A stretch of DNA of 64,000 nucleotides, from positions 142,504 through 206,503 of the forward strand of contig MFEK01000016.1 of assembly GCA_001779925.1 (NCBI GenBank). Reading direction: 5' to 3'. Positions 49-50,998 of this stretch are shown here, in pieces (the stretch's first letter is position 1; every line of letters begins with the position of its first letter). The translations under genes were made by a program, and so were the position numbers. A model generated the notes under the pieces. The model did no database searches. It was not told where the DNA came from and saw only the letters and a list, made by a program, of their open reading frames with translations. The stretch comes from Candidatus Doudnabacteria bacterium RIFCSPHIGHO2_01_FULL_46_14 (GTDB lineage: Bacteria > Patescibacteriota > Doudnabacteria > UBA920 > 2-01-FULL-46-14).

Positions 49-95
49 CTCCTCTTTCTTCTCCCCCTCGTGTGAGGGAGAATAAGAGGGGGTTA
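49..95. repeat. GC-rich palindromic repeat (subtype TCTCCCCCTCGTG..AGGGGGAGA..AGAGGGGGTT). Lies in the recF 5' leader and supplies its RBS
   Basis: Inverted C-tract/G-tract arms. Near-identical copies at 2381-2422 and 29061-29097. Confidence 0.7.
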
Positions 96-101
96 TAGTT
101 T

Positions 102-1271
102 ATGCACATAAATAAAGTTAGTTTTCAAAATTTCCGCAACTTTGGCAGACTGGAATTAAAATTTAATCCTGGTTTTATCGTGCTTGCCGGGCCAAACGGC
201 ATGGGTAAAACAAATTTTTTGGAAGGGCTTTATTGGGGGGCGGTCCTGCGGCGCTTTCCAGGAACAAAACTTGGCCAGCTAATGCGCGACAATGAACTAT
301 TTTACAAAATAAATTTACAGTTTCATTCTAAAGATGAAGAAATATTAGAGATCGTTTCTGAAAGAGAGGGAGAGAAATATTCGGCCCAAGGCCGACCAGC
401 CTCGGGCTGGAAATTTACCTACAGATACAATAACCTCGCTGTGCCGCGCGCGAAATTTGCCGGTCATCTGCCAGTGATTAGCTTTTTGCCGGAAGATTTG
501 AACCTGCTCGGGCACTCACCTGCTGGACGCAGAAGATATTTAAATGAAACCCTCTCTACTACCTCTGCGGAATATCGCCGCAATCTATCAGAGTATGAAA
601 AAACTCTCAAACAGCGAAACGAGCTCCTGCAAAATCTCGAGTCAGAATCAAACAGCGGACAGGACGAGATCTGGAACGAGCGGCTGGCAGAGTACGGCAG
701 TTTGATCATCGCGGAGCGCCAAAAGTTTTTAGAATTCGTAAAAGAAAGATTCGAGGCGGCAACCACAGCGCTGTCGCCAGAATTAACCGGAAGCATGATT
801 GATTATCGTTTTTCCGGAAGCCCTGACAGGCAAGGATTTCTGGCAGAAATCAGCGGGCTGGGAGCGCGTGAAAAAGAAGCTCATGGAACTTTAATCGGCC
901 CGCATAAAGATGATTTTCGCCTCTCCTGGCTTGACCGCGAGGTGATTGGTTATGTGTCGCGCGGCCAGCTCAGAAGCTATACTTTGGCCCTAAAAATCCT
1001 GGAGCGGGAATACATAAAAGACAAGCTCTCTGCCCAGCCGGTCATGCTTCTCGACGATGTGTTTTCCGAATTTGACGAGGCTCACCAGCGCGCGCTTATT
1101 GATTTCCTGCAAACTTTTGACCAGGTATTTTTGACCACAGCACATTTGAAAGAAGTCCAACCCTTTCTCCCGGTAAATTCACAAGTGTACAATGTAAATG
1201 ACGGTACTATTATTCCCTCTCCGTTTCCGCATTTCCCTCCCCTTGAGGGGGAGGGATTAAGGGAGGGGTGA
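102..1271 (+). CDS. recF: DNA replication and repair protein RecF. The C-terminal ~20 aa are read through a GC-rich repeat copy
   Basis: Walker A GPNGMGKTNFLEGL. MHINKVSFQNFRNF N-terminus typical of RecF. SMC-like C-terminal motifs. Tail PLEGEGLREG encoded by repeat 1221-1270. Confidence 0.9.
   Translation: MHINKVSFQNFRNFGRLELKFNPGFIVLAGPNGMGKTNFLEGLYWGAVLRRFPGTKLGQLMRDNELFYKINLQFHSKDEEILEIVSEREGEKYSAQGRPASGWKFTYRYNNLAVPRAKFAGHLPVISFLPEDLNLLGHSPAGRRRYLNETLSTTSAEYRRNLSEYEKTLKQRNELLQNLESESNSGQDEIWNERLAEYGSLIIAERQKFLEFVKERFEAATTALSPELTGSMIDYRFSGSPDRQGFLAEISGLGAREKEAHGTLIGPHKDDFRLSWLDREVIGYVSRGQLRSYTLALKILEREYIKDKLSAQPVMLLDDVFSEFDEAHQRALIDFLQTFDQVFLTTAHLKEVQPFLPVNSQVYNVNDGTIIPSPFPHFPPLEGEGLREG
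1221..1270. repeat. GC-rich palindromic repeat (CCCTCCCCTTGAGGGGGAGGGATTAAGGGAGGGGTG)
   Basis: Near-identical copy at 1569-1613. The two copies bracket the DUF721 gene. Confidence 0.8.
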
Positions 1272-1278
1272 AAAATTT

Positions 1279-1566
1279 ATGTTCAACAGCCTCAGCAAAC
1301 TCCTTGGCGATAAATTTTCCCGCAAGGACGATCTCTCAAAGCAAATCGAGATCGTCAAGGTTTTTGACGTGTACCGCGAGGAAATGAAAAACCTCTTCCC
1401 CGAAGAAGAGATTACTGTGGTGAGCCTGAAAGACAAAACTCTTTTGATTCAGCTTAATAACTCTGTCCTGGCAAATGAACTGCGTCTGCGCGAATGGAAC
1501 ATCATCTCCAAAATCAACGCCACCATGAGCAAAGAGGTGGTAAAGAAAATTATTTATCGCTTCTAG
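1279..1566 (+). CDS. DUF721 (DciA/YaaB-like) small protein, in the position downstream of recF that is conserved across bacteria
   Basis: 95-aa basic protein immediately after recF, as in the dnaN-recF-DUF721-gyrB neighbourhood. Product assigned from position and size. Confidence 0.55.
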   Translation: MFNSLSKLLGDKFSRKDDLSKQIEIVKVFDVYREEMKNLFPEEEITVVSLKDKTLLIQLNNSVLANELRLREWNIISKINATMSKEVVKKIIYRF

Positions 1567-2371
1567 TTCCCGTTTTTCCCTCCCCTTGAGGGGGAGGGAT
1601 TAAGGGAGGGGTGATGGATTCGTAGACGTATTCAAACAGTTTTTTCATAGTCTTCGCGATATTATTGTCTTCAATGATAACCGCGATTGGTTCTTTTTCT
1701 GAGAAAGACATGATCGCGGTTTTATTATCATAGACATCTATTTCTGTATCAAACGCGAATTGCTCAGGAATCAATTTCGTCTCTCGCAGGAGTTCTTTAT
1801 CGCGTGTCTGGCTTTTGCGCGACCATTCGGTGTCCGGCGCAATATCTAAACATTTGATTCCGCTTCTCGCGCGTTTTTGCAGATAATATTCTACCCACTC
1901 GTGCGGCATTTCGCGAAAGATCGCATCCGTACCGGTAAAATCGCGCAGGGTTTTTTCCTCGTTATTTATCAGTGTGTCTTCGTAGGCTTGTTTGATCCCC
2001 TCGATTCCTTCAAAAAACTGAATCCGCGGAAAAACGCTTTTTTGCCGGCGCAGGCGGGAAAGCTGCGGTAGAATGGATTTGATTTCTTTTTTTGTTTCGG
2101 AAAGATTTGATTCCAGCCGCTCTACATAGTTAATCAGGTGAGCTGGCTCAATTGACTGAAACATAAGCACGCCCTTTTCTTTGGTCTGAGACACGAGCCC
2201 GCGGTTCATGAGGGTTTTTAAAATTCCGTAAGCCGTGGTCCGGTTGATCTTGGCAAATTTCGCAATATCACGCACCCGCAGTTTTCCCTCCTCCAAAAGG
2301 AGAATAAGCACTGCGGTTTCTTTTTGATCGAGATTGAGGCTTTGGAGAATTTTATGAAGTTCAGCAATCAT
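1550..2371 (-). CDS. TrmB-family transcriptional regulator (paralog 1)
   Basis: N-terminal wHTH LRVRDIAKFAKINRTTAYGILKTLMNRGLV typical of TrmB. The C-terminal tail PPQGEGKTGT is encoded by a repeat. Confidence 0.8.
   Translation of the reverse strand: MIAELHKILQSLNLDQKETAVLILLLEEGKLRVRDIAKFAKINRTTAYGILKTLMNRGLVSQTKEKGVLMFQSIEPAHLINYVERLESNLSETKKEIKSILPQLSRLRRQKSVFPRIQFFEGIEGIKQAYEDTLINNEEKTLRDFTGTDAIFREMPHEWVEYYLQKRARSGIKCLDIAPDTEWSRKSQTRDKELLRETKLIPEQFAFDTEIDVYDNKTAIMSFSEKEPIAVIIEDNNIAKTMKKLFEYVYESITPPLIPPPQGEGKTGTRSDK
1569..1613. repeat. GC-rich palindromic repeat, second copy bracketing the DUF721 gene. It also encodes the C-terminal tail of the minus-strand TrmB regulator
   Basis: 36/36 identity of core with 1235-1270. 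Confidence 0.8.
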
Positions 2372-2380
2372 GTTCAGCTA

Positions 2381-2422
2381 TTTTCTCCCCCTCGTGAGGG
2401 GGAGATGAAGAGGGGGTTAATT
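2381..2422. repeat. GC-rich palindromic repeat in the 5'UTR of TrmB paralog 1
   Basis: TCTCCCCCTCGTGAGGGGGAGA is a perfect 9-bp-arm palindrome. Same subtype as 49-95. Confidence 0.7.
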
Positions 2423-9684: not shown

Positions 9685-9718
9685 CTCCCTCTCTTAAGTT
9701 AAGAGAGGGTAGGGTGAG
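9685..9718. repeat. Perfect palindrome CCCTCTCTTAAGTTAAGAGAGGG (GC-rich family variant) overlapping the ruvB RBS
   Basis: 11-bp arms with no loop. Related to the ..CCCCTTAAGATAAGGGG.. copies at 24030-24113. Confidence 0.55.
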
Positions 9719-9862
9719 TTATGAATCACTAATTCAATTTTACCATTCTCAACCAGCATTGACAAAAGCCCTATTTTATGCAAAAATGGGTTGCCGCATT
9801 ATGGGACGATGTCAGCAAAGCTGGCGCGGAAACCCTGAGCGGACTTACGGAGGTATAGTGTG

Positions 9863-17023: not shown

Positions 17024-17638
17024 GTGAAAACTATCATCGAAGTCGTCGATGAAACTCAAATCAGATCAAAACTCGAAGAACGTATTAAGGGACCGCAGTT
17101 CCCGTTTTTGAGACTAAACCAGGTTCGGATTCGCGAGAACGATCTGCAGAAAACGGATCTATCATTCGTCCAAGCTGCATTTTGTTTGTCGCAGAGAACC
17201 GATACCGTTAGCGAGGATAATTTTTTATTCCTGGCCGGCAGAATCTTGGAAACACCTGATTTCCTCTGTCTTGACATCGCTGAAAATGGAATGCGATTGC
17301 CAGAAAGTACCGAATGGGCGACCATGCTCGGTGCCCTCGTGATGAGCAAGGGGAATATCACTACTGAAGTGAAAACAGATCCTGCTTTAGTCGCAGACAT
17401 ATTCCGGTCACAGGAGTTTCTCTTCCCCGCGCCTGGCTTGGGTCAGGTCGGAAGAAGCATTCAGGAACAAATCCTTCTTGCGAAGAGTTTTGTCTGGACA
17501 TTGGAAAAAGCCGCGATCCAGTTCGCCAGCATTCTTAGTCTCTATGAGAGTGAAAAAGAGGTGATGCTCGAGATCGCGTCTCGCCTCTGGCCCTACACGA
17601 AATTCGGGCAGCTCTTGACTAAGGCTCATTTGCAATGA
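17024..17638 (+). CDS. Hypothetical protein (204 aa, GTG start)
   Basis: RBS AAAGGGGG upstream of GTG. Terminator follows. Confidence 0.45.
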   Translation: MKTIIEVVDETQIRSKLEERIKGPQFPFLRLNQVRIRENDLQKTDLSFVQAAFCLSQRTDTVSEDNFLFLAGRILETPDFLCLDIAENGMRLPESTEWATMLGALVMSKGNITTEVKTDPALVADIFRSQEFLFPAPGLGQVGRSIQEQILLAKSFVWTLEKAAIQFASILSLYESEKEVMLEIASRLWPYTKFGQLLTKAHLQ

Positions 17639-17674
17639 GCTTTTTCCATATATGATCCATTGACGATTAAAACC

Positions 17675-17710
17675 CCCAAGGAACTTCGTGCGTCCTTGGG
17701 TGGTTTTTAT
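17675..17710 (+). terminator. Rho-independent terminator
   Basis: CCCAAGGAacttcgtgcgTCCTTGGG followed by TGGTTTTT. Confidence 0.65.
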
Positions 17711-17744
17711 TTCATGAGCCGCACCCTCGCATTTGCGCATTTTT

Positions 17745-17800
17745 TCAAATCATACTACCATATACTCATAGGATTCTCGGCCGCGAAGTCTGTGAGTAGT
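17745..17800. repeat. Palindromic direct repeat (copy 1) upstream of the PaaX-like regulator: TACTCATAGGATTCTCGGCCGCGAAGTCTgTGAGTAGT
   Basis: Near-identical copy at 18382-18427. Internal 9-10 bp inverted arms ACTCATAG/CTATGAGT. Confidence 0.75.
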
Positions 17801-17825
17801 AGATGAATTAAGATCCTTAGTAATC

Positions 17826-18398
17826 ATGAATAAAACTCTCAAGCGTATATTAGGCGGGACGGGCAGCCTAGCCCGAGACATTATTGAGTATCTTCGGGAA
17901 GCTCATGAAATGAGCGCTGAAGTGTGTTTTTCCACAACTTTTGGTGCGCGTCCTGGGCGCGCTTATTATAAGAGGCAATCGGTTTACAACACGTTCTCAC
18001 GATTGCAAAAGCAAGGTTATCTGCGAAAGGAAAGGCGAGCTGGTAAGAAGGCAGTCTATAAGCTGCCTACAGTTGTGCGAAAAGAACTGGAGGCATTTGA
18101 AAGATTGACATTAAAGCATCGATCATCAGCCAATTGGGATCGGCGTTGGAGATTGGTGTCATTTGATATTCCAGAAACTCAACATAAATACCGCGATACT
18201 TTGCGCTGGAAATTAAAACGGCTGGGTTTAGAAAAATTTCAACAGAGTATTTGGCTTACCCCGTATCCGCTGGAGGATGATTTTCAACAAATCATTGCCG
18301 AGGGTGGCCTACAAGATTGTGTGTTCATTATTGATACAGACCGTATTCCAAATGAGATAAAATGGCGTCGCTGTTTTCAGCTTACTAACTACTCATAG
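17826..18398 (+). CDS. PaaX-like transcriptional regulator (N-terminal wHTH, C-terminal Cas2-like fold)
   Basis: C-terminal WRLVSFDIPE...QQSIWLTPYP resembles the PaaX C-terminus/Cas2-like motif. The stop codon lies inside repeat copy 2. Confidence 0.5.
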   Translation: MNKTLKRILGGTGSLARDIIEYLREAHEMSAEVCFSTTFGARPGRAYYKRQSVYNTFSRLQKQGYLRKERRAGKKAVYKLPTVVRKELEAFERLTLKHRSSANWDRRWRLVSFDIPETQHKYRDTLRWKLKRLGLEKFQQSIWLTPYPLEDDFQQIIAEGGLQDCVFIIDTDRIPNEIKWRRCFQLTNYS

Positions 18399-18427
18399 GA
18401 TTCTCGGCCGCGAAGTCTATGAGTAGT
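18382..18427. repeat. Palindromic direct repeat (copy 2), overlapping the regulator stop and upstream of polA
   Basis: 37/38 identity with 17763-17800. Confidence 0.75.
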
Positions 18428-18460
18428 TAAATTATGTTAGGATAAGTAGGATAAAGGGCT

Positions 18461-21292
18461 ATGGGAAAAGATAAAGAAGAGAAAAAAGATATATTGCTTT
18501 TGGTGGATGGGAATGCGCTCATACACCGGGGGTTTCATGCGATTCCGCATTTGTCTACGAAAGCGGGCGAGCCGACCAATGGCGTGTATGGTTTTACGGT
18601 GTTGTTTTTGCGCGCCCTCAAAGAGCTGGCGCCACGGTATGTGGCGGTGGCCTTTGATCTGCCTGGCGGTACGTTTCGCGATAAGCTCTACGATGCTTAC
18701 AAGGCCAAGCGAGTCGCGGCGCCTGCTGAACTGTATTCGCAGATCCCGCGCGTAAAAGAATTGGTGCAAGCCATGAACGTGCCAACATTTGAACTTGAGG
18801 ACTATGAAGCGGATGATATTATCGGTTCACTGGCTGAGCTTGGTAAACGTGAGCAGAATTTGGAAACTATTATTTTGACTGGCGATCTGGATGCTTTGCA
18901 GCTCGTGGATGACAATGTAAAAGTTTTCACGCCAAAGCAGGGACTCAGTGAGACAATGATTTATGATCGAAAGGCTGTGGAGGTTCGCTATGGAATAGCG
19001 CCCGAGCAGATCGTGGATTACAAAGCTTTGCGAGGGGACGCTTCTGATAACATTCCGGGCGTCAAAGGCATTGGCGAGAAAACTGCGACCGAGTTGCTGC
19101 AAAAATTTGGAACTTTGAAAGGAATTTATGAGGTTTTGACTTCACCCCTCCCTAACCCTCCCCCTCAAGGGGAGGGAATAAGACCGAAAGTTGCGCAATT
19201 ATTACTCCTGCATCGGCAGGACGCCGAGATTTCGCAAAAATTGGCGCAGATTGTGCGCGATCTGCCGATCAAACTCGACCTGAAAAAGGCAGAACTCGCG
19301 GATTATGACGCTGAGCCGGTTGTAAAAATGTTTCAGGAGCTGGAGTTTCGAAGCTTGATTGATAAGCTGCCGAAGAATAACCCCCCTCAATCCCCCCTTA
19401 GTTTAAGGGGGGAAGAAAATGCGGATCAGGGGGAGGAAAAACTTACGAAAAGTGTAATTCAGTCCAATTATGAATTAGTCGATTCGAAAAAGGAATACGA
19501 GGCTCTGATAAAGGGATTAAAGGGAGTAAAGGAAATCGCGATTGATACGGAAACAACCTCGATTCATCCGGTGCAGGCCGAGCTTCTCGGTTTGGGAATT
19601 GGCTGGGAAGAGGGAAAGGCGTTTTACGTTCTTAGAAACTTTGTGGGACCGGAATTGATCTCCATTCTCGAGAACTCTGGCGTCAAAAAGATCGGGCACA
19701 ATATAAAATATGATTATCTGGTTTTAAAACAGGCAAGAATCAAATTGGCCGGTATGAATTTTGATACCATGATCGCGGCTTATTTGCTCAATCCAGGGGC
19801 GCGCAATTTTGATCTCGACAGTTTGAGTTTCAACGAATTCGGGATCCGCAAGATTTCCATTACCAGTCTGATTGGCCCCTCACCCTTAGTAAAGGGTGTA
19901 GGGGGCAAAAAACAGATTAATATGAGAGAGGTTGATCCTGAGCGAGTGGCTGAATATTGCGGCGAAGATGTAGACTGCACTTGGCGGCTCAAACAGAAAC
20001 TGGAAACAGAATTAAAAAACAAGAATCTGGAAAAAGTTTTTTATGAGATAGACATGCCGCTCGTTGCCGTGCTTGCGGAAATGGAACACTCGGGCATTAA
20101 GATTGATACGAAATATTTAAAAGAGCTTTCTGCGAAAGCTGAGCAAGAAGCTGACAAAATTCAGAAACAAATCTGGAAATTGGCCGGCGAAGAGTTCAAT
20201 ATCGGCAGCCCGATTCAACTTAAGAAAATACTTTTTGAAAAGCTGGGGATTCCGAGCGATGAACTAAAAAAAGGCAAAACCGGCCTCTCGACCGCGGCCC
20301 AGGAGCTCGAAAAACTGCGCGGCCTGCATCCGATTGTGGATCTGATTTTCGACTGGCGGGAAATCACAAAGCTCAAAAACACTTATCTTGATGCTCTGCC
20401 GGATCTGGTTTACAAAAAAACAGGGAGACTGCACACGAGTTTCAACCAAACTATTGCCGCTACCGGCCGACTGTCATCGTCTGATCCGAATCTGCAGAAT
20501 ATTCCGATTCGCACAGAACTCGGACGCGAGGTGCGTAAAGCCTTTGTGGCGGAAAAAAGCTGCAAATTGGTTTCCATAGACTATTCGCAGATCGAATTGC
20601 GACTTGCTGCTCACATTTCCGGGGATCCGAAAATGATTGAGGTATTTCGGAGCGGCGGAGATATCCATGAGGCTACTGCAAGAGACATCTTTAACCTCAC
20701 CCCAGCCCTCTCCTCACGAGGAGAGGGAGCAGAAGTCACTCCTGATATGCGGCGGGCAGCCAAGACTATAAATTTTGGCGTGCTCTATGGCCTGTCTGCG
20801 TATGGACTTAAATCCCGAATTCCAGGAGTGTCGGTGGGAGTAGCGGAAGATTTTATTAATAAATATTTTGCAACCTACAAACGCCTCGCTGACTATCTCG
20901 ACGAGGTTGTTGAAGAAACAAAAAAGACTGGCTATGTTCATAATGAACTGGGACGACTCCGGTTTCTGCCGGAGATCAATTCGTCCCAGTTTCAGGTGCG
21001 CTCTGCGGCAGAGCGCGCGGCCATCAATATGCCGTTTCAGTCCCTGTCCGCGGACATTATCAAAATGGCTATGAATAAATTGGCGGAAAAGAATTTAATA
21101 ACCCAGCCTGATTGCAGGCTTCTCTTGCAGGTTCATGACGAACTCGTATTTGAAATCGCGGAAAATAAAATCGAGAAATACGTGCCAGAGATCGTAAAGA
21201 TCATGCAGAATATTTATAAGCTGAAAGTTCCCTTGGTGGTTGATGCCAAAGCCGGAGAGAACTGGGAAGTCATGGAAAAGCTGGCCGTTTAG
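18461..21292 (+). CDS. polA: DNA polymerase I (5'-3' exo, 3'-5' exo and polymerase domains) carrying four in-frame GC-rich repeat insertions
   Basis: LLVDGNALIHRGFHA 5' nuclease N-terminus. Polymerase motifs DYSQIELR, RRAAKTINFGVLYG, QVHDELVFE. Inserts at 19143-19182, 19381-19440, 19874-19906, 20694-20730. Confidence 0.9.
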   Translation: MGKDKEEKKDILLLVDGNALIHRGFHAIPHLSTKAGEPTNGVYGFTVLFLRALKELAPRYVAVAFDLPGGTFRDKLYDAYKAKRVAAPAELYSQIPRVKELVQAMNVPTFELEDYEADDIIGSLAELGKREQNLETIILTGDLDALQLVDDNVKVFTPKQGLSETMIYDRKAVEVRYGIAPEQIVDYKALRGDASDNIPGVKGIGEKTATELLQKFGTLKGIYEVLTSPLPNPPPQGEGIRPKVAQLLLLHRQDAEISQKLAQIVRDLPIKLDLKKAELADYDAEPVVKMFQELEFRSLIDKLPKNNPPQSPLSLRGEENADQGEEKLTKSVIQSNYELVDSKKEYEALIKGLKGVKEIAIDTETTSIHPVQAELLGLGIGWEEGKAFYVLRNFVGPELISILENSGVKKIGHNIKYDYLVLKQARIKLAGMNFDTMIAAYLLNPGARNFDLDSLSFNEFGIRKISITSLIGPSPLVKGVGGKKQINMREVDPERVAEYCGEDVDCTWRLKQKLETELKNKNLEKVFYEIDMPLVAVLAEMEHSGIKIDTKYLKELSAKAEQEADKIQKQIWKLAGEEFNIGSPIQLKKILFEKLGIPSDELKKGKTGLSTAAQELEKLRGLHPIVDLIFDWREITKLKNTYLDALPDLVYKKTGRLHTSFNQTIAATGRLSSSDPNLQNIPIRTELGREVRKAFVAEKSCKLVSIDYSQIELRLAAHISGDPKMIEVFRSGGDIHEATARDIFNLTPALSSRGEGAEVTPDMRRAAKTINFGVLYGLSAYGLKSRIPGVSVGVAEDFINKYFATYKRLADYLDEVVEETKKTGYVHNELGRLRFLPEINSSQFQVRSAAERAAINMPFQSLSADIIKMAMNKLAEKNLITQPDCRLLLQVHDELVFEIAENKIEKYVPEIVKIMQNIYKLKVPLVVDAKAGENWEVMEKLAV
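19143..19182. repeat. GC-rich palindromic repeat in frame within polA (encodes SPLPNPPPQGEGIRP)
   Basis: CCCTCCCCCTCAAGGGGAGGG hairpin. Confidence 0.75.
19381..19440. repeat. GC-rich palindromic repeat in frame within polA (encodes NPPQSPLSLRGEEN..QGEE)
   Basis: CCCCCCTTAGTTTAAGGGGGG hairpin plus GGGGGAGG. Confidence 0.7.
19874..19906. repeat. GC-rich palindromic repeat in frame within polA (encodes GPSPLVKGVGGK)
   Basis: CCCCTCACCCTTAGTAAAGGGTGTAGGGGG. Confidence 0.65.
20694..20730. repeat. GC-rich palindromic repeat in frame within polA (encodes TPALSSRGEGAE)
   Basis: CCCTCTCCTCACGAGGAGAGGG palindrome. Confidence 0.7.
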
Positions 21293-24029: not shown

Positions 24030-24113
24030 CCCTCCCCTTAAGATAAGGGGAGTTGGAGGGGTTATGAAAATTTAATAACTCCCCTAGCCCCTCTTAATTT
24101 AAGAGGGGAATTA
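24030..24113. repeat. Two adjacent GC-rich palindromic repeats (CCCTCCCCTTAAGATAAGGGGAG.. and CCCCTCTTAATTTAAGAGGGG) in the uvrB 5' leader
   Basis: Inverted arms seen directly. Confidence 0.65.
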
Positions 24114-24390: not shown

Positions 24391-24430
24391 GCGTTTCGAA
24401 TCTTGCAGTATCGAAGCGCCTTTGTTGTTT
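24391..24430. terminator. Bidirectional terminator hairpin
   Basis: AAGGCGTTTCGAatcttgcagtaTCGAAGCGCCTT followed by TGTTGTTT. Confidence 0.55.
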
Positions 24431-25237: not shown

Positions 25238-25322
25238 TCCCCTCCCTTGAGGGGAGGGGGCTGGGGGAGGGTGGAATATTACCACCCCCACCTAACCTCC
25301 CCCCTCAAGGGGGAGGAATAAT
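25238..25322. repeat. Composite GC-rich palindromic repeats in the 5'UTR of TrmB paralog 2
   Basis: CCCTCCCTTGAGGGGAGGG plus GGGTGGaatattaCCACCC plus CACCCCCACCTAACCTCCCCCCTCAAGGGGGAGGAAT. The last block is near-identical to 27877-27915. Confidence 0.75.
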
Positions 25323-26608: not shown

Positions 26609-26647
26609 CCTCTCCCTTAATCCCTCCCCACGCCTGGGGAGGGAAAC
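26609..26647. repeat. GC-rich palindromic repeat in the ruvA 5' leader
   Basis: CCCTCCCCACGCCTGGGGAGGG hairpin. Confidence 0.65.
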
Positions 26648-27339: not shown

Positions 27340-28743
27340 ATGATCGATTTCCTACGCCAAATTCTCGGTCAACGAATCCTTAATTACTACCACCTTGTTT
27401 GCGCTATAATCGCTAACATTCTTTATGGTTTCCCTTCACGCAAGCTACATGTCATCGGGGTGACTGGCACGGATGGAAAAACTACGACCGTAAATATGAT
27501 TGCCAGTATTCTGCGCGCGGCAGGGCTGCCAACCGCGCATCTCTCCACTGTGAATGCGCAGATCGGCGATAAAGTTTATGACACCGGTCTTCATACGACA
27601 ACTCCCAGTCCGTTTCTACTTCAGAAACTAATTCGCAGAGCAGTCAATGCTGCATCATTTTTTTTGGTGCTAGAGGTGACCTCGCACGCGCTTGATCAAT
27701 ATCGGACCTGGGGAATAAAATTTGAAACTGCGGTCATCACCAATATCAGCCATGAACATTTGGATTATCACAAGGGTTTATCAAGTTATATGGCGGCGAA
27801 AGGGAGAATTTTTAAGAATGTGGAATATGGAATATTGAATATGGATGATGGGAGTTATGAATATTTTTCAAAGATTCACCCCCACCTAACCTCCCCCCTC
27901 GAGGGGGAGGAATTAAAACGCGAGCAGCTATTGACCTATGGACTGACTGCAAATGCCAAAGTCTGGGCGGATAATATTGAGGAAAGTCTGATTGCTACAA
28001 AATTTAGAGTACACCCGCCAGACAGCAAGGCAGGTGCTATGGCAGAAACGATTTCGATTGAGTTAAACCTGCCCGGCAAATTTAATGTTTATAATGCGCT
28101 GGCGGCGATTAGCGTGGGGGTAAATTATAATGTTGCTCCAGAGGCAATCCAAAAGGGATTAAGGGGAGTAAGTCGGATTCCTGGACGGCTGGAATTCATC
28201 ACCCCTCCCTCAGTCCCTCCCCATCAAGCCTACCCCAAAAGCGAGTACGCTTTCGGGGGACCCCGGCAAGGGGAGGGAAGAATGCGGGTCATGGTGGATT
28301 TTGCGCATACGCCGAATGCGATTGAAAATCTGATGCAGTTTCTGCGGCCGAAAATCAGCGGGAAGATTATCCACGTGTTCGGCAGTGCCGGAGAGCGCGA
28401 TGTTACAAAGCGGCCGCTCATGGGCGCGGCTTCTGATAAATATGCGGACATCATTGTCCTGACGCGCGAGGATAATCGAAGCGAGCAAGTCCAAGATATC
28501 TGCGTGCAAATCGCGCAAGGGATTACGCGCAAGCAGAATGGCAAAGAATACTTTATAATTCCGGATAGGCGGGAAGCGATCAGAACCGCCCTTCGACTGG
28601 CTCAGGGCAGTGACGATTTGATAATCGTCACTGGCAAAGGCCACGAGCAGAGTTTGAATGTGGGTGGCGTGGAAACTCCGTGGGATGATAGGGAAATAGT
28701 TAGAGAAGTCGCCTCTTCGGCGACCAGCCGAGGAGGCGGGTAA
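27340..28743 (+). CDS. Mur ligase family protein (MurE/MurF-like) with two in-frame GC-rich repeat insertions
   Basis: VIGVTGTDGKTTT P-loop and Mur ligase middle/C-terminal domains. Inserts at 27877-27915 and 28198-28285. Confidence 0.75.
   Translation: MIDFLRQILGQRILNYYHLVCAIIANILYGFPSRKLHVIGVTGTDGKTTTVNMIASILRAAGLPTAHLSTVNAQIGDKVYDTGLHTTTPSPFLLQKLIRRAVNAASFFLVLEVTSHALDQYRTWGIKFETAVITNISHEHLDYHKGLSSYMAAKGRIFKNVEYGILNMDDGSYEYFSKIHPHLTSPLEGEELKREQLLTYGLTANAKVWADNIEESLIATKFRVHPPDSKAGAMAETISIELNLPGKFNVYNALAAISVGVNYNVAPEAIQKGLRGVSRIPGRLEFITPPSVPPHQAYPKSEYAFGGPRQGEGRMRVMVDFAHTPNAIENLMQFLRPKISGKIIHVFGSAGERDVTKRPLMGAASDKYADIIVLTREDNRSEQVQDICVQIAQGITRKQNGKEYFIIPDRREAIRTALRLAQGSDDLIIVTGKGHEQSLNVGGVETPWDDREIVREVASSATSRGGG
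27877..27915. repeat. GC-rich palindromic repeat in frame in the Mur ligase gene (encodes HPHLTSPLEGEEL)
   Basis: 37/39 identical to 25285-25322. Confidence 0.8.
28198..28285. repeat. Composite GC-rich repeat in frame in the Mur ligase gene (encodes PPSVPPHQAYPKSEYAFGGPRQGEGR)
   Basis: CCCTCCCTCAGTCCCTCCCC ... GGGGGACCCCGGCAAGGGGAGGGAAG. Confidence 0.65.
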
Positions 28744-28745
28744 GT

Positions 28746-29186
28746 ATGGAACTATATATAGATACAACAGAGCAAGGGGTTATCAAGCTACAATTATACA
28801 GTGGTGAGAAAGTTATAGGGAAATCAAGAAAGCAAACTTTGAAAATTTCCGAATCATTACTTCCGGAGATTGAAAAATTGTTAAAAAAACATGGAGTTAA
28901 ATTTGTAGACTTGAAAAAAATTTCGGTTAATCCGGGTCCGGGAGGTTTTTCTTCAACGCGCACTGGGGTGGCTACTGCCAACGCTTTGAATTATGCTTTA
29001 GGGGTTAATAAAATAGTTTTGTCCGTTTATGACAAGGAACCGAATATAACAAAAGCAAAGCTTCTCCCCCTCATGAGGGGGAGACAGAGAGGGGGTCGTA
29101 GAATTAGAATTAACAAGACCTCACCTAAGCCCTCCTCCCAGCCTATGCCAGAGGCTTCGGCGGGCACAGCACGAGGAGGGGGATAA
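28746..29186 (+). CDS. Truncated TsaB-like protein (YeaZ N-terminal half) with a repeat-encoded C-terminal tail
   Basis: NPGPGGFSSTRTGVATANALNYALGV matches the TsaB GPGSFTGxRIG motif. The last ~40 aa are encoded by GC-rich repeats 29061-29186. Confidence 0.5.
   Translation: MELYIDTTEQGVIKLQLYSGEKVIGKSRKQTLKISESLLPEIEKLLKKHGVKFVDLKKISVNPGPGGFSSTRTGVATANALNYALGVNKIVLSVYDKEPNITKAKLLPLMRGRQRGGRRIRINKTSPKPSSQPMPEASAGTARGGG
29061..29186. repeat. Two GC-rich palindromic repeats (TCTCCCCCTCATGAGGGGGAGA.. and CCCTCCTCCC..GAGGAGGGGG) forming the 3' end of the TsaB-like ORF
   Basis: Subtype shared with 49-95 and 2381-2422. Confidence 0.7.
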
Positions 29187-37300: not shown

Positions 37301-37702
37301 GCGAGATCCACAGGGCCTTACTCGCTTATCACCCAGCAGCCGCTCGGCGGCAAAGCTCAGTTTGGCGGCCAGCGGTTTGGAGAAATGGAAGTCTGGGCGC
37401 TTGAAGGATATGGCGCGGCCCATACTCTGCAGGAAATGCTGACCATTAAATCTGACGATGTGGTGGGGCGGTCCAAGACCTATGAATCAATTGTTAAAGG
37501 CGAACCAATAAAAACTCCAAACGTCCCGGAATCTTTCCGCGTGCTGGTCAAAGAATTGCAGTCATTGTGTCTGGATGTGAATCTTGTAGAAGAGCAGGTC
37601 GCTGGCGATAGTGCTGGGGAAATCGGTGAGCTAACAAGCCCTGAACAGCAAGCAGTGGAAGAAGAGTTGCGAGAATTAAAACCCGAGAAAGCGAAAACCT
37701 AA
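34385..37702 (+). CDS. rpoB: DNA-directed RNA polymerase subunit beta
   Basis: Full-length conserved RpoB motifs (e.g. [25 protein letters not shown]). Confidence 0.95.
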
Positions 37703-37705
37703 TAT

Positions 37706-45339: not shown

Positions 45340-48015
45340 TTATTTTAATTGTTTGACTTTGGCTTTGAGGGTTTTGACTTTGGTTTCGGCGGCTGACAGG
45401 TCTGCCTGCATTTTTTCTACTATTTCTTTCGGGGCTTTTTTCAGAAAGCCTTTATTTTTTACCTGAGTAGAGATTTTTTTGACATAGCTTTCTGCCTCTT
45501 TGAGCTGTTTTTCTGTGAGGGCGGCTTCTTTTTTGGAATCAAAATTGGGGATGACAAGGTAAATGCGGACGCCTTCCCAAAGAAAATACGGCATTTTGTG
45601 GGCATGGTCCATCACGGCAAAATTGAGCTTGGTTCTGGTGAGCTTTTCGATAACTGGGGTGTGATCTTTTATCCATTCGAGATCTTTGGGAATTTCTAAA
45701 TAGCTTGAATAAATTGGGGTGGACCCCAGACGGTATTCTGCCCGCAGGTTGCGCAGGCCAGTCACGAGTTCGCGCATAGCTTCAAAGAGCGGGCGGGCCG
45801 CGAATTTTTCTATTTTCTCCGGAACATGGGGGTAATCATCCACCATTAGCAGGCTTTTGGCCATCTGCGACCAGATGTGCTCAGTGACGAAAGGAATGAA
45901 AGGATGCCACAGTTTTAGAATATTAACCAGGAGGACATCGAGAACTTCTTTTTTATTGCCTTCGATTTTGGCAATTTCCAAATACCAATCCGCCAGATCA
46001 TCCCAGGTAAACCGCTGGAGTTCTTCCGCGGCTTGGCCATATTGGGAGTTTTCAAAATGGCGGTTGACCGCGGCTACTGTTTCATCCAGGCGATCAAGAA
46101 TCCAATGATCGGCAAGCGTTGATAACCCTCCCCCACCTCCCCTTACCTTAAGGGGAGGAGTCGAGAGAATGAATCTCGAGATATTCCAGAGCTTATTGAC
46201 GAAATTGCGGCCAGCCTCCACTTTGATTTCCGAAAATTTCATGTCATTTCCCGGCGTGTTGCCGAGCACCAGTGACAACCGCAGCGCGTCAGTGCCGTAT
46301 TTGGCCTGGATATCCAGCGGATCAATGCGATTGCCGCTCGATTTACTCATTTTTTTGCCCTCAATGTCGCGCACCAGCCCGTGCAGGTAGACGGTTTTGA
46401 AAGGAATATCGTTTAATAGAAACCCGGTCATCAGAACCATGCGCGCTACCCAGAAAAACAAAATATCATAGGCGGTTTCCAATACCACGGTAGGGTGATA
46501 GGTTTTTAAATCCGAGGTTTCCTGAGGCCAACCCAGCGTGGAAAAGGTCCATAGCCCGGAAGAAAACCAGGTATCAAGCGTGTCCTCGTCCTGTTTGAGG
46601 TTTGCGCCCTGGCATTTTGTGCAGGAAGCTGGGGGCTCCACGGCCACGATGGTTTCGGTGCAGTCCGGGCAGTACCAGACCGGAATGCGGTGGCCGTACC
46701 AGATTTGCCGCGAGATGGTCCAATCCCGCAGATTTTTCATCCACTCAAAATAGATTTTCTCGAAATGCTTGGGCACGATTTTGATAGCGCCCGATTTCAC
46801 CGCCGCAGTCATCATTTCCTTGAGGGTCGTCTTTTCCGGCAGTCTCAGATTTTTACTAAATTCTTTATTCTCTATTTTAAATTCTGCATTCACATTCACA
46901 AACCACTGCTTTGAAACAACCGGTTCCACCACAGTGCCGCAGCGGTAGCAGGTGCCGACGCGATGCTCAATCTCTTCGGTTTTTTCGATGAACTCCTTTT
47001 CATGGAGTTCCTGCACGATGCGGTTAAGCGCATCCTCTTTCGTAAGTCCCGCATAGTCGTCAAACCCATGATCCGCGGCTTCCTGCGCATCGATTTTGCC
47101 GTCTGCCGTGTAGAGGTGAATCATTTCCAGGCCGTGGCGTTTGGCAATTTCAAAATCATTATGGTCATGGCCGGGTGTGACTTTCATAGCTCCAGTGCCG
47201 AACGCTTTATCAATATGATCATCCGCGATAACCGGCACCTCGCGGTTCAAAAGCGGGAGCATGATGATCTTGCCGACATATTTTTTGTAGCGCGAATCGC
47301 CTGGGTTAACGGCCACGCCAGTGTCGCCAAGCATAGTTTCCGGACGGTTTGTCGCTACAACCAGGTAGTCTTCACTGTCTTTTACGGGATAACGCAGATA
47401 AAACATGTGACCTTTGGCTTGTTTGAAGCTGACCTCATCATCGGCCAGAGTCGAGCCGCAACGCGGGCACCAATTAACCATGCGTTCGCCGCGGTAGATG
47501 AGTCCGGCGTCATGCATTTTTTTGAAAGCCGTACGCACTGCCAGTGACAGCTCCGGGGACAACGTAAATTTTTCGCGCGTCCAATCGCAGGACGAGCCCA
47601 TTTTGCGGATCTGGTTTTGGATGCGCCCTTGGGTATGACTGACAAATTCTTCGATGCGCCTCAGAAGCTGCTCTCGGCCCAGGTCAGTCCGGGTTTTTTT
47701 CTCTTCTTCGAGAATTTTGCGTTCCACAACATTTTGGGTGGCAATGGCTGCGTGGTCAGTACCCGGTAGCCACAGAGCCTTGCGGCCCCGCATGCGCGCA
47801 TGGCGGGTCATAATATCCTGCAGAGTGATGAACAGGGCGCTTCCCAGGTGCAGTTCGGCTGTAACATTGGGCGGCGGCATGGCAATGGAGAACGGTTCGG
47901 CATTCCAAAACCGGTCCCCGGCTTTTTCTAGATTATCAGGATTGAAAAAGCCCGATTTTTCCCATTTCTCGTAGATTTTATCCTCAAATTCTTGTGGATT
48001 ATAGGCTTTGCTCAT
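45340..48015 (-). CDS. valS: Valyl-tRNA synthetase, with one in-frame GC-rich repeat insertion
   Basis: HIGH-like PPNVTAELHLGSALF, KMSKS, editing domain, C-terminal coiled coil. Insert at 46124-46166. Confidence 0.9.
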   Translation of the reverse strand: MSKAYNPQEFEDKIYEKWEKSGFFNPDNLEKAGDRFWNAEPFSIAMPPPNVTAELHLGSALFITLQDIMTRHARMRGRKALWLPGTDHAAIATQNVVERKILEEEKKTRTDLGREQLLRRIEEFVSHTQGRIQNQIRKMGSSCDWTREKFTLSPELSLAVRTAFKKMHDAGLIYRGERMVNWCPRCGSTLADDEVSFKQAKGHMFYLRYPVKDSEDYLVVATNRPETMLGDTGVAVNPGDSRYKKYVGKIIMLPLLNREVPVIADDHIDKAFGTGAMKVTPGHDHNDFEIAKRHGLEMIHLYTADGKIDAQEAADHGFDDYAGLTKEDALNRIVQELHEKEFIEKTEEIEHRVGTCYRCGTVVEPVVSKQWFVNVNAEFKIENKEFSKNLRLPEKTTLKEMMTAAVKSGAIKIVPKHFEKIYFEWMKNLRDWTISRQIWYGHRIPVWYCPDCTETIVAVEPPASCTKCQGANLKQDEDTLDTWFSSGLWTFSTLGWPQETSDLKTYHPTVVLETAYDILFFWVARMVLMTGFLLNDIPFKTVYLHGLVRDIEGKKMSKSSGNRIDPLDIQAKYGTDALRLSLVLGNTPGNDMKFSEIKVEAGRNFVNKLWNISRFILSTPPLKVRGGGGGLSTLADHWILDRLDETVAAVNRHFENSQYGQAAEELQRFTWDDLADWYLEIAKIEGNKKEVLDVLLVNILKLWHPFIPFVTEHIWSQMAKSLLMVDDYPHVPEKIEKFAARPLFEAMRELVTGLRNLRAEYRLGSTPIYSSYLEIPKDLEWIKDHTPVIEKLTRTKLNFAVMDHAHKMPYFLWEGVRIYLVIPNFDSKKEAALTEKQLKEAESYVKKISTQVKNKGFLKKAPKEIVEKMQADLSAAETKVKTLKAKVKQLK
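46124..46166. repeat. GC-rich palindromic repeat in frame within valS (encodes PLKVRGGGGGLS on the minus strand)
   Basis: CCTCCCCTTACCTTAAGGGGAGG. Confidence 0.7.
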
Positions 48016-49861: not shown

Positions 49862-50998
49862 TTATTTCCAACTCCTTAATTCCCAGTTGGGATTGACCTT
49901 GATTTTTTTTATTGGTGTGCCGCGGTTGCCAGCTGAGTATTGGTAAAATGCGGCCATGGTGATCATGCCAGCGTTGTCAGTAGTGAGATTGGAATGTGGA
50001 ATATGGAATGTTGAATGTGGAAGGGATTTTTTGATGGCCGAAGCTAGTTGTTTGCGTAGTTTTTCATTAGCGGAAACGCCGCCGCCGAGAAGAATGGTTT
50101 TTACTTTGTATTGTTTGGCAGATCTGATGGTTTTTGAAACAAGTACGTCAACGATGGCTTGTTCTACGCTGGCAGCCACGTTGGCGACTTGCGATTGGCG
50201 ATTGGCGACCAGCAAGGATTGCCAGTGGTAAAGCACTGCGGTCTTCAGGCCGGAAAAGGAAAAGTCATAATTTTTAGAATCCATCATCGGCCTTGGGAAA
50301 TCAAAAGCCTGGGGTTTGCCTTTCTTCGCGAGTTTTGAAATTTCCGGCCCGCCAGGGTAAGGCAGACCCATGATTTTCGCGACCTTATCAAAGCATTCGC
50401 CTGCCGCGTCATCAACTGTTTCGCCCAATATTTTGTATTTCCCAATTTTTTCGACAAGGACCAACATCGTGTGGCCCCCCGACACTACCAAGCCTAATGC
50501 TGGAAACTTCACCCTCCCCTTACCCCTCCCCTCAAGGGAGGGGAATTCCTCCCCCTTGAGGGGGGAGGATAAAGGTGGAGGTGACTCATTCGCCAAGGCG
50601 GAAAGCAAATGTCCTTCCATATGGTTAATCGGCAGGATGGGGATCTGCAACGCAAACGCCAAAGCTTTGGCAGTATCTACGCCAATCATCAAAGAGGTGA
50701 CAAGGCCCGGCCCAGCAGTAACTGCGATCGCGTTAATATCTTTGAGCTGGACCCCCGCTTTCGCGAGGGCTTGTGCGATTACGGGCAAGATTTTCAAGAT
50801 ATGATTGCGTGCGGCAACCTCCGGGACAATTCCTCCGGTTTTTTGGTGGATATTGATCTGTGAATAGATGATATTCGAAAGAAGCCGGAACTTCCGACTT
50901 TTTGTCTCACCTTCCAGAACAGCCGCGCTCGTCTCGTCAGCGGAGGATTCAATGGCGAGAATGTGTGTCACCCCTGCACCAGATTTAAACCAATTCAT
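49862..50998 (-). CDS. tsaD: tRNA t6A37 threonylcarbamoyltransferase TsaD (Kae1/YgjD) with a ~30-aa in-frame repeat insertion
   Basis: ILAIESSADETSAAV N-terminus and HMEGHL metal-binding motif. Insert at 50509-50583. Confidence 0.85.
   Translation of the reverse strand: MNWFKSGAGVTHILAIESSADETSAAVLEGETKSRKFRLLSNIIYSQINIHQKTGGIVPEVAARNHILKILPVIAQALAKAGVQLKDINAIAVTAGPGLVTSLMIGVDTAKALAFALQIPILPINHMEGHLLSALANESPPPLSSPLKGEEFPSLEGRGKGRVKFPALGLVVSGGHTMLVLVEKIGKYKILGETVDDAAGECFDKVAKIMGLPYPGGPEISKLAKKGKPQAFDFPRPMMDSKNYDFSFSGLKTAVLYHWQSLLVANRQSQVANVAASVEQAIVDVLVSKTIRSAKQYKVKTILLGGGVSANEKLRKQLASAIKKSLPHSTFHIPHSNLTTDNAGMITMAAFYQYSAGNRGTPIKKIKVNPNWELRSWK
50509..50583. repeat. Tandem GC-rich palindromic repeats in frame within tsaD (encode SPPPLSSPLKGEEFPSLEGRGKGRVK on the minus strand)
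   Basis: CCCTCCCCTCAAGGGAGGGG and CCTCCCCCTTGAGGGGGGAGG. Confidence 0.75.

Follow-up and report, generated by a model that had tools for sequence, protein, structure and literature searches.

The window, that is, the whole 64-kb stretch of Doudnabacteria DNA analysed here, carries near its start the genes for RecF, DciA and, on the opposite strand, a TrmB-like regulator. Two copies of a short repeat are placed on either side of dciA:

102..1271, plus strand: recF, 389 aa, with a C-terminal tail lengthened by the repeat
1232..1271, plus strand: Copy 1, a triplex-type element in sense orientation inside the 3' end of recF, which receives from it 13 codons and a TGA stop
1279..1566, plus strand: dciA (DUF721, PF05258), 95 aa, with termini as in relatives
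1550..2371, minus strand: gene for the TrmB-like regulator, 273 aa, of which the residues from about 254 on come partly from the repeat and partly from the 3' end of dciA, into which the frame runs on
1575..1614, plus strand: Copy 2, identical over 40 nt, past the dciA stop and antisense within the 3' end of trmB

The initial sequence-only reading had described two identical direct repeats around dciA, and these are real: the 36-mer CCCTCCCCTTGAGGGGGAGGGATTAAGGGAGGGGTG has exactly two matches in the window, at 1235-1270 and 1578-1613 (both on the plus strand), with 0 matches expected in shuffled sequence. The identity extends to 40 nt (1232-1271 = 1575-1614; TTTCCCTCCCCTTGAGGGGGAGGGATTAAGGGAGGGGTGA). 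The upstream copy lies 8 nt from the dciA ATG, as claimed; the downstream copy does follow the dciA stop, not immediately but starting 11 nt past the stop codon. In seven independent assemblies of this species both copies are unchanged, with no mismatch over 450 nt, and at least one further copy of the exact 36-mer occurs among 80 retrieved loci. To judge from their perfect 40-nt identity, the two copies, which are 343 bp apart, most likely arose by recent copying of one from the other, or were homogenized by gene conversion.

Relatives indicate what the repeats have done to the adjacent genes. RecF homologues comprise 357-373 aa, and most end right after a conserved G.I motif; in the window, Copy 1 supplies the last 13 codons (HFPPLEGEGLREG) plus the stop, fewer than the ~20 codons estimated initially, and the RecF tail thereby includes the repeat-derived peptide PPLEGEGLREG. 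The seven recF codons preceding Copy 1 (PSPFPHF) are a pyrimidine-rich stretch, which may be the relic of an older element. On the other side of dciA, the TrmB of the syntenic locus L083 is 81% identical and aligns gap-free to residue 253, and homology ends exactly at the start of the repeat. Copy 2, read antisense, provides about 12-13 codons (ITPPLIPPPQGEG), beyond which TrmB gains another 7-8 codons (KTGTRSDK) within the 3' end of dciA. The assignment of the TrmB C-terminus to the downstream copy was correct; where repeats are absent, both RecF and TrmB are shorter. The suggestion that the termini of three genes had been re-sculpted applies to recF and trmB, but not to dciA: the DciA C-terminus ...IIYRF* is also present in L004, which has no element past dciA, and the IYRF-encoding 3' end recurs in L083 and L084, where the ends of dciA are repeat-free. 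Because the dciA termini are the same in these relatives, two termini and not three have been remodelled by the repeats, the C-termini of RecF and TrmB.

The two copies are not alone. Further elements of the same design occur throughout the window (Y, R and RH denote the pyrimidine, purine and reverse-Hoogsteen arms):

57..94, plus strand: in the spacer that precedes recF (the dnaN-recF spacer in relatives), stem imperfect; 7 nt separate the end of its RH arm AGAGGGGGTT from the recF ATG, and L004, L082, L083 and L084 have an element in the same position
2384..2418, plus strand: intergenic, directly upstream of the start of the opposite-strand trmB
9687..9720, plus strand: intergenic, directly upstream of the ruvB start (9678, minus strand), at a site also filled in L081 and L084
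16793..16824, plus strand: intergenic, ~100 nt past a T2SSE-type ATPase gene
19145..19176, minus strand: in frame in polA, antisense, encoding SPLPNPPPQGEGI, where Taq polymerase has an 11-aa gap; same sequence as the copy at L081 6026
19379..19413, minus strand: in frame in polA, antisense, in the linker of the 5' nuclease and 3'-5' exonuclease domains
20693..20727, minus strand: in frame in polA, antisense, encoding LTPALSSRGEGA, just N-terminal of the Pol I O-helix motif, where Taq has an 8-aa gap
24032..24063, plus strand: intergenic, upstream of the uvrB start, converging with the next element
24077..24108, minus strand: convergent partner of 24032..24063
25239..25271, plus strand: intergenic, upstream of a second TrmB-like gene, converging with the next element
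25285..25316, minus strand: convergent partner of 25239..25271; its RH arm GGTGGGGG places T opposite A of the R arm GGGGGAGG
26609..26644, minus strand: intergenic, a short way upstream of where ruvA probably starts (about 26655)
27879..27910, minus strand: antisense within a Mur ligase gene, in frame, where it encodes HPHLTSPLEGEE
28192..28228, minus strand: partial element that has lost its Y arm to decay and retains the R and RH arms; in frame in the stretch of the Mur ligase gene that separates the M and C domains
29063..29097, plus strand: in sense orientation, within the 3' portion of a TsaB-like ORF
46123..46158, minus strand: in frame and in sense orientation in valS, where it encodes TPPLKVRGGGGG between the catalytic domain and the anticodon-binding domain
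50512..50543, minus strand: in frame in tsaD, sense, forming a divergent pair with the next element
50547..50581, plus strand: in frame in tsaD, antisense, divergent partner of 50512..50543

In total, the window holds 20 elements with differing flanks, 10 per strand, of which 19 are complete and one is partial. Coding sequence is overlapped by 11 of the 20 (eight internal and in frame, three in 3' coding ends), and nine are intergenic. The density of such hairpins is 0.39/kb in the window vs 0.02/kb in unrelated control loci. The window also contains, at 41605-41628, a typical terminator-like hairpin, which is unlike the elements.

A single small gene bracketed by two identical direct repeats would be the expected appearance of a cassette, in which the repeats act as recombination sites (attC-like or similar) and dciA moves as a unit; a 'cassette boundary signature' had accordingly been proposed from the sequence. 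However, the adjacency of recF and dciA is found in 11/11 relatives examined, with repeats present or absent, and the recF-dciA(-trmB) order is likewise retained: in L001, L002, L006 and L081 the two genes overlap by 8 nt, and in L003 and L005 no more than a few bases intervene, or stop and start are fused as TAATG, the junction being repeat-free in all six. Moreover, 18 further copies have unrelated flanks and eight of them reside inside housekeeping genes, the region is invariant in the seven assemblies, and no integrase, transposase or recombinase domain is found among the annotated ORFs of the 64-kb window. The two repeats belong to a dispersed family of 20 copies, that is, to the situation of independent insertions with different flanks that the sequence-only reading itself had named as speaking against its proposal. 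On kept synteny, dispersal of the family and lack of a recombinase domain in the window, the cassette is rejected as extremely improbable.

The common denominator of the family is an arrangement of three arms on one strand, in the order pyrimidine, purine, reverse-Hoogsteen, which is seen in 19/19 complete copies of the window and in the copies of 8 related loci. Copy 1 consists of the Y arm TCCCTCCCC, the loop TTGAG, the R arm GGGGAGGGA, the loop TTA and the RH arm AGGGAGGGG, the last lying 10 nt ahead of the dciA ATG; the three arms of the dciA-flanking copies are CCCTCCCC/GGGGAGGG/GGGAGGGG, and those of another subfamily CCTCCCCC/GGGGGAGG/GGTGGGGG. Across the family, the elements are 31-37 nt long, arm 2 is the Watson-Crick complement of arm 1 over a perfect stem of 7-11 nt, loop 1 comprises 2-7 nt (most commonly TTGAG) and loop 2 is TTA in 11/33 elements. 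The relation of arm 3 to arm 2 is a mirror relation, with a best spacer of 3 nt in 23/32 elements. When the spacer was set to 3 nt and the two arms were compared in mirror register, arm-2 G faced G in 173/207 positions, and arm-2 A faced A (34) or T (31) vs G 11 and C 4. The association is strong in mirror register (odds ratio 31.5, p=5e-29) and absent in the direct register taken for comparison (odds ratio 0.7); own arm pairs score 0.85 vs 0.61+-0.03 for permuted ones, and 0/20000 permutations reach the observed value (17 arm classes). The rule was replicated in a second set of 73 elements from metagenome loci, which represent 30 arm classes (odds ratio 8.1, p=2.5e-20). ORF span is no guide to the class of metagenome copies, because most of their contigs, at 60-74% GC, contain long stop-free stretches by chance. 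The possibility that arm 3 directly copies arm 2 and serves as an alternative Watson-Crick partner of arm 1 was also considered; it is rejected for want of any direct-register association in both data sets. A function as intrinsic terminator was discarded too, the T run after the hairpin being absent on both strands.

Purine arms of this kind could in principle act through a G-quadruplex, or the hairpin through the transcript by regulating expression, in which case the triplex pattern would be incidental. The dciA-flanking copy does hold four G-runs of at least three, and the hairpins are predicted at -9 to -11 kcal/mol (as DNA). Yet many subfamilies (e.g. GAGGGGGAG..GAGGGGG) do not have four G3 runs, and a quadruplex does not predict A or T at the mirrored positions; for TM_ECO, NMR ruled it out (PMC4666352). 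A role in the transcript is at odds with the occurrence of both orientations relative to transcription, and there is no Rfam family match, neither at gathering threshold for the whole window nor at E<=1 for positions 1-2600. Both variants are therefore very unlikely.

Where elements fall inside genes, the encoded residues appear to be accommodated at tolerant sites. The tsaD pair adds ~22 aa at the position of E. coli TsaD residue 127 (repeat-derived peptide SPLKGEEFPSLEGR), the TsaD homologue P0123 has an identical double-element peptide at an overall identity of 72%, and solved TsaD and Pol I structures have gaps exactly where the repeat-encoded peptides fall. Look-alike peptides in RecF, TrmB, PolA, TsaD and the Mur ligase might suggest that it is the protein that is selected, a useful P-P-x-G-E-G motif being added to several proteins. 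This is hardly credible: the peptides are read in differing frames and from elements of either orientation, nine copies lie between genes, and the conserved property is the complementarity of three nucleotide arms, not the peptide.

The elements come and go among relatives: the window, L004 and L083 are rich in them, and L003 and L005 have none. In the sister genome (L081/L096), the recF-dciA and tsaD-loop copies are absent; the distant L094 has a different element pair at the same tsaD site. A RecF tree (single, unbootstrapped neighbour-joining) fits one gain and two losses, or several gains, at the shared sites. The repeats may also act as a recombination hotspot, the alternative suggested from the sequence; such triplex motifs have been linked to local instability (PMC4666352), with which this patchy presence fits. 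At the recF-dciA junction, elements are found in five genomes with arms that differ but co-vary; gene conversion or replacement by another family member could import three matching arms even if no selection operates there, so that covariation between orthologous sites does not prove compensatory evolution. Dispersal on both strands, a presence that is patchy even in sister genomes, and 'master' copies that recur almost unchanged from genome to genome would also suit miniature elements mobilized by a transposase (REP/RAYT-like or MITE-like), the hairpin with its third arm serving as the recognition site of the enzyme. Against this, the flank profiles of the elements lack the terminal inverted repeats and target-site duplication that characterize MITEs as well as a GTAG-type 5' tetranucleotide, no transposase domain is encoded in the 64 kb, the master variant has 0 matches on the viral contigs searched, and Holder et al. 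saw no link to mobile elements (PMC4666352). Transposase-driven spread is accordingly considered distinctly unlikely.

Another function could be exerted at gene boundaries. A module selected by the host, with stops in all sense frames and a Shine-Dalgarno-like purine arm, might uncouple overlapping genes and drive re-initiation, the copies at start sites being functional ribosome-binding sites. Several observations suit this: the recF stop lies inside the junction element in four of the five genomes that have one, with the third arm 5-10 nt ahead of the dciA ATG; elements upstream of recF, again in five genomes, have their third arm similarly close to the start; elements account for 6/19 Shine-Dalgarno-like motifs of the window; and the sense strand is rich in stops (0 open frames in 7/33 elements vs 3.7% in shuffles). 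But eight copies are gene-internal and further ones lie nowhere near a start, close relatives do without an element at the same junctions, antisense copies would have the Shine-Dalgarno-like arm sequestered in the hairpin, and the stop codons are explained by the favoured loops TTGAG and TTA. In E. coli, PIT elements have neither promoter nor terminator activity (PMC4666352). A boundary module is thus unlikely.

The best explanation, for which a probability of about 0.8 is estimated, is that the repeats belong, as ordinary members, to a family of the BoxC / PIT / TM_ECO kind (class II purine-motif intrastrand triplex) that occurs genome-wide and has spread in the Doudnabacteria lineage, and that dciA is not a mobile cassette. 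Such elements could work in the following manner: When the DNA becomes single-stranded in replication, transcription or repair, arms 1 and 2 would form a hairpin, and the third arm would fold back into its major groove via G*G:C, A*A:T and T*A:T triads, as shown in vitro for the E. coli homologue. The family presumably multiplied in the lineage, with gain and loss at sites that tolerate it, such as gene boundaries and protein surface loops; the favoured mode is a selfish or neutral spread on which selection acts as a filter, as in the Rickettsia palindromic elements. In this compact genome genes abut or overlap, so that an insertion at either side of dciA falls in the 3' coding end of the neighbour. 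The sense element has stops in all three frames, and recF therefore ends inside Copy 1; the antisense element leaves two frames open, and trmB therefore reads through Copy 2. The purine third arm of Copy 1 ahead of the dciA ATG is Shine-Dalgarno-like and may serve as such.

This assignment removes a false lead, since dciA is not a mobile cassette, and explains odd C-terminal tails and internal PxxGEG-like peptides, which are expected to recur in CPR genome annotations; residues of RecF, TrmB, PolA, TsaD, ValS and the Mur ligase are derived from repeats. The three-way covariation, present across dozens of arm classes, could mean that the intrastrand triplex fold is itself under selection in living cells, as the recognition structure of a propagation process acting on single-stranded DNA or as a gene-boundary module used by the host; this is possible but doubtful. 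If true, it would provide the first comparative (evolutionary) evidence for BoxC/PIT triplexes mattering in vivo, something that experiments in E. coli did not demonstrate, and CPR bacteria would host an RPE-like invasion of essential proteins by triplex elements. The E. coli copies are near-identical and thus unable to address selection on triplex-forming ability; the many diverged subfamilies found here offer the variation needed.

Five known systems invite comparison. Integron cassettes with their attC sites likewise have a single small gene flanked by structured repeats, whereas here no integrase domain is encoded in the window, attC-like conserved ends are lacking, the synteny of the supposed cassette is kept and the same repeat occurs inside many genes. 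REP sequences are extragenic, have a conserved 5' GT[AG]G beside an imperfect palindrome and co-occur with a RAYT gene. The elements share with REP/BIME the dispersal of hairpin repeats of 20-40 nt as singles or inverted pairs, but their 5' flank consensus is ..TT and their 3' flank T/A-G/T, without GT[AG]G, and no Y1 transposase (RAYT) domain is found in the 64-kb window. As in the homopurine mirror repeats of H-DNA, the purine arm and the third arm together are a mirror-symmetric homopurine tract, and the triad code is shared; here, however, the complementary pyrimidine arm resides on the same strand, and the whole triplex could form from one strand by double fold-back. Rickettsia palindromic elements (RPE), reportedly described by Ogata et al. 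in 2000, are said to be palindromes of ~100-150 bp that lie in frame in ORFs and are restricted to Rickettsia. By this description, they resemble the present elements as short structured repeats that are in frame in housekeeping proteins of a reduced genome and add surface peptides, but differ in their length and in having no third mirror arm.

The closest match is BoxC, PIT (potential intrastrand triplex) or TM_ECO, known from E. coli and other bacteria (Hoyne & Maher 2000; Holder et al. 2015, PMC4666352). Motifs of this class have stems of 6-15 nt, and TTA as loop 2 defines type A. TM_ECO follows the pattern CCCTCNCCC-N3-6-GGGNGAGGG-N3-GGGNGAGGG with TTA as loop 2, occurs also in inverted pairs and was proven to form a triplex in vitro by CD/NMR; its E. 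coli copies are reportedly all intergenic, and no triplex was detected in duplex DNA in vivo (PMC4666352). The arm order is the same, arms have 8-10 nt, loop 1 is often TTGA(G) and loop 2 comprises 3 nt, with TTA as the most frequent; G, A and T are employed alike in the third arm, and inverted pairs, lack of strand bias and patchiness among relatives are shared. The consensus CCCTCNCCC..GGGNGAGGG..GGGNGAGGG is closely fitted by L002 12047, window 20693-20727 and L082 3254; the dciA-flanking copies have the arms given above, and other subfamilies differ. The copy at 19145-19176 (CCCTCCCCTTGAGGGGGAGGGTTAGGGAGGGG) nearly equals E. coli copy no. 2 (CCCTCTCCCTTGAGGGAGAGGGTTAGGGTGAGGG), including both loops. 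Differences concern (i) the host, here a CPR bacterium with a small genome; (ii) the density, ~0.3/kb vs 23 copies in the E. coli K-12 chromosome; (iii) the many arm subfamilies in place of one near-identical consensus; and (iv) the location, 11/20 copies overlapping coding sequence, essential genes included, whereas TM_ECO is reportedly confined to intergenic sites. Being intergenic characterizes the E. coli copies; the BoxC/PIT family is not structurally defined by it. What is new beyond the published description is the behaviour, i.e. the overlap with coding sequence, in frame in polA, tsaD, valS and the Mur ligase gene; the known range of BoxC/PIT-type motifs thereby comes to include a CPR lineage with a reduced genome, where they are dense and enter essential genes. 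Around dciA, an already known type of element is met in a new host, where its habits parallel those of the RPE.

The window contains exactly two copies of the 36-mer that the sequence-only reading reported on either side of dciA (DUF721), both on the plus strand (1235-1270 and 1578-1613), where none is expected by chance; the identical stretch extends to 40 nt (1232-1271 = 1575-1614). At least one further exact 36-mer is present in another genome among the loci listed. The two copies touch the following genes:

102-1271, plus strand: ORF, recF
1279-1566, plus strand: ORF, dciA (Pfam DciA, formerly DUF721)
1550-2371, minus strand: ORF, TrmB-like regulator

The RecF C-terminus (HFPPLEGEGLREG*) falls within copy 1, which supplies about 13 codons instead of the ~20 initially estimated. 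Copy 2 does lie behind dciA, but starts 11 nt past its stop rather than directly after it; on the opposite strand it is read by TrmB as ITPPLIPPPQGEG, followed by 7-8 further codons inside the dciA 3' end. The reshaping of gene termini is thus real for recF and trmB, but not for dciA, both ends of which are unaltered.

Both copies are members of a dispersed family, of which the window holds 19 complete and one partial copy, ten per strand and 31-37 nt each, as detected by pattern and repeat scans. On one strand, an element consists of a C/T arm, a first loop of 2-7 nt (most commonly TTGAG), a complementary G/A arm, a short second loop (TTA most frequently, 11/33) and a second G-rich arm. Pyrimidine-purine hairpins occur at 0.39/kb in the window and 0.50/kb in L004 (another Doudnabacteria MAG); the same scan found none in two further Doudnabacteria relatives, and control loci of unrelated origin have ~0.02/kb. 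Three inverted pairs are found in the window (24032/24108, 25239/25316 and 50543/50547). In some elements of three related loci, loop 2, which separates the third arm from the purine arm, holds a small GC-rich hairpin: in L083 (9334-9385) the third arm mirrors the purine arm, whereas the mirror is just partial in L081 (2235-2290) and L004 (4486-4530).

The third arm is a mirror image of arm 2, not a direct copy. With the spacer set to 3 nt, the best value for 23/32 elements, the mirror register yields an odds ratio of 31.5 (p=5e-29; 32 unique elements in 17 arm classes), whereas the direct register shows no association between arms 2 and 3 (odds ratio 0.7). Opposite an arm-2 G, arm 3 carries G at 173/207 positions; opposite A, it carries A 34, T 31, G 11 and C 4 times. 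Third arms fit their own arm 2 at 0.85, a score matched by 0/20000 permutations, and those of other elements at 0.61+-0.03. The rule recurs in an independent set of 73 unique metagenome-contig elements in 30 arm classes (odds ratio 8.1, p=2.5e-20), again with no association in the direct register. These pairings, G with G and either A or T with A on a third strand running antiparallel, follow the reverse-Hoogsteen code of purine-motif triple helices.

Going by its RecF and TsaD homologues, the organism belongs to the Candidate Phyla Radiation (CPR), close to Candidatus Doudnabacteria. Eleven related loci were compared around recF-dciA, and the two genes are adjacent in all of them. In L001, L002, L006 and L081, the last being the sister genome on a single unbootstrapped neighbour-joining RecF tree, the two genes share 8 nt (ATGTTTGA-type) with no element at the junction, and the junctions of L003 and L005 likewise lack one. 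The window, L004, L082, L083 and L084 carry an element at this same position, differing in arms and loops among the five genomes, with the three arms shifting jointly:

Arms 1/2/3 of the recF-dciA junction elements
window: CCCTCCCC/GGGGAGGG/GGGAGGGG
L004: TCTCCCCCT/AGGGGGAGA/GAGAGGGGG
L082: CCCTCTCC/GGAGAGGG/GGGTGAGG
L083: CCCTCTCCTC/GAGGAGAGGG/GGGTGAGG
L084: CCCTCCCC/GGGGAGGG/GGGAGAGG

Elements have turned over among these relatives. L004 retains the ancestral overlapping stop; shortly before it, the element has been inserted cleanly and in frame. RecF homologues (357-373 aa) mostly end directly past the conserved G.I motif; a few carry ...PRPGEG-type tails because recF there also runs into an element. 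For TrmB, the syntenic protein of L083, whose dciA-trmB interval lacks an element, is 81% identical without gaps to residue 253, and homology ceases exactly at the repeat start. The L004 DciA has ...IIYRF* as its C-terminus; L081, L083 and L084 likewise encode IYRF* at the 3' end of dciA. The whole region is identical across seven independent assemblies of the species. The proposal that the repeats border a dciA cassette finds no support, given the constant recF-dciA adjacency and the dispersed family; this makes dciA a stably resident gene, each boundary of which received a family member. The two identical copies would have originated by local copying or gene conversion. Just 5' of copy 1, a pyrimidine run (CCCTCTCC, 1216-1223) encodes the extra PSPFPHF of the RecF tail; it equals the pyrimidine arm that L082 has at this junction and is perhaps the remnant of an earlier, replaced element.

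Reading frames through the 40-mer are asymmetric. In the pyrimidine-to-purine direction, each frame meets a stop (TGA in loop 1, TAA at loop 2, TGA at the 3' end); the opposite direction has two open frames. No open sense frame exists in 7/33 elements vs 3.7% of shuffles, and antisense strands are as open as shuffles. This fits recF (sense) ending in the element and trmB (antisense) reading through it, and also the antisense orientation of 6/8 internal in-gene copies. Coding sequence is overlapped by 11/20 copies in the window, including:

PolA: three in-frame copies
Mur ligase: two in-frame copies, one partial
ValS: one in-frame copy
TsaD: divergent pair, in frame
TsaB-like ORF: one copy, in the 3' part

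Alignments of TsaD and PolA to solved structures place gaps precisely at the repeat-encoded peptides: ~22 extra residues at E. coli TsaD position 127, and gaps of 11 and 8 residues in Taq polymerase at two PolA sites, the latter just before the O-helix motif. A 72%-identical TsaD has the identical peptide, and that of L094 (57% identical) carries a distinct divergent pair in this position, still obeying the mirror rule; the sister genome has unrelated sequence in this loop and its element pair elsewhere in tsaD. Across CPR, this loop of TsaD is a hotspot. Past HMEGHLLSAL (window about 50510-50585; homologues P0122-P0190) it is hypervariable among CPR TsaD proteins, and other repeat-like peptides found there (NFQFQISNFK, NSKFQIPNSK, SYKLQAN) suggest insertion of more than one type of short repeat.

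Most elements (17/20) lie within the first 29 kb (1-29100 vs 29100-64000), which are possibly origin-proximal because the window opens with recF, which follows dnaA-dnaN in relatives and in other assemblies of the species; the E. coli K-12 motifs cluster near the origin (Holder et al., PMC4666352). Two of the three TrmB-like regulators in the window (1550-2371, 24429-25226, 33390-34139) have elements at both ends, and L083 likewise has three such regulators. Two very long ORFs (34385-41599) contain no element. Directly behind the 1297-aa ORF, TCCCCTC-gcaa-GAGGGGA followed by TTTTTT (41605-41628) was rejected as a family member, as it lacks a third arm and resembles an ordinary intrinsic terminator; the two long ORFs are immediately followed by one (41675-42679) that has RhuM and Fic/DOC domains.

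Other repeats are also present. A 45-nt direct repeat, 91% identical (17756-17800 and 18383-18427), flanks an ORF with a PaaX central Cas2-like domain (17826-18398); each copy holds an 11-bp inverted repeat (ACTACTCATAG...CTATGAGTAGT) and may be an operator site. Rfam gave no credible match in 17600-18500, the one sub-threshold hit (HBV_epsilon, E=0.93) lying outside the repeats. GAATRTKGAAT-like units form a second short family (5-34, 27816-27845, 49992-50021), with a pair 93% identical over 30 nt within different genes (Mur ligase, tsaD), and recur in the dnaN-recF spacers of L004, L082, L083 and L084; the spacers of the window and L004 are 83% identical, their RecF proteins 48%. On the sister-genome contig (L081, 7667-9074), fragments of bAvd and a reverse transcriptase recall a diversity-generating retroelement.

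The single strand of an element would fold into a hairpin plus third strand, as E. coli biophysics and covariation suggest; that this fold itself is selected in vivo appears unlikely. The third arm is a possible ribosome-binding site, judging by its position 5-10 nt upstream of dciA starts and of recF starts (five genomes each); elements provide 6/19 SD-like motifs in the window. Neither target-site duplications nor terminal repeats were seen at the elements, and no transposase domain was found among the annotated window ORFs. Spread is probably selfish or neutral, with selection sparing tolerated sites, by analogy with Rickettsia palindromic elements (RPE).

By architecture, the elements belong to the class II intrastrand triplex motifs of Holder et al. 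2015, named first BoxC, next PIT elements (Hoyne and Maher) and, in E. coli, TM_ECO (PMC4666352). The published pattern is CCCTCNCCC-N3-6-GGGNGAGGG-N3-GGGNGAGGG, with loop 2 being TTA in type A and CCG in type B; K-12 has 23 copies, always intergenic, without strand bias and with five inverted pairs (PMC4666352). The E. coli single strand forms a stable triplex in vitro (CD and NMR, Tm 70-82 C), G-quadruplexes being ruled out by NMR, and DMS footprinting detected no triplex in vivo in E. coli; earlier work cited there found no promoter or terminator activity, and the motif has been linked to local genomic variability (PMC4666352). G/C-rich motifs are plentiful in Microcystis, Anabaena, Nostoc and Thermus (PMC4666352). 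The exact master variant occurs on more than 109 metagenome contigs of 39 to 74% GC and is thus not CPR-specific; none was found on viral contigs. No publication on motifs of this type within genes or in CPR bacteria turned up in a literature search. E. coli copy no. 2 (CCCTCTCCC-TTGA-GGGAGAGGG-TTA-GGGTGAGGG; PMC4666352) and window 19145-19176 (CCCTCCCC-TTGA-GGGGGAGGG-TTA-GGGAGGGG) are identical in both loops, and both systems share TTA as a loop 2, here the commonest, and inverted pairs. However, 11/20 window copies overlap coding sequence, whereas those of E. coli are described as intergenic throughout; for BoxC/PIT/TM-type motifs, the density in this CPR host is unusual, and the insertions into coding sequence are RPE-like.
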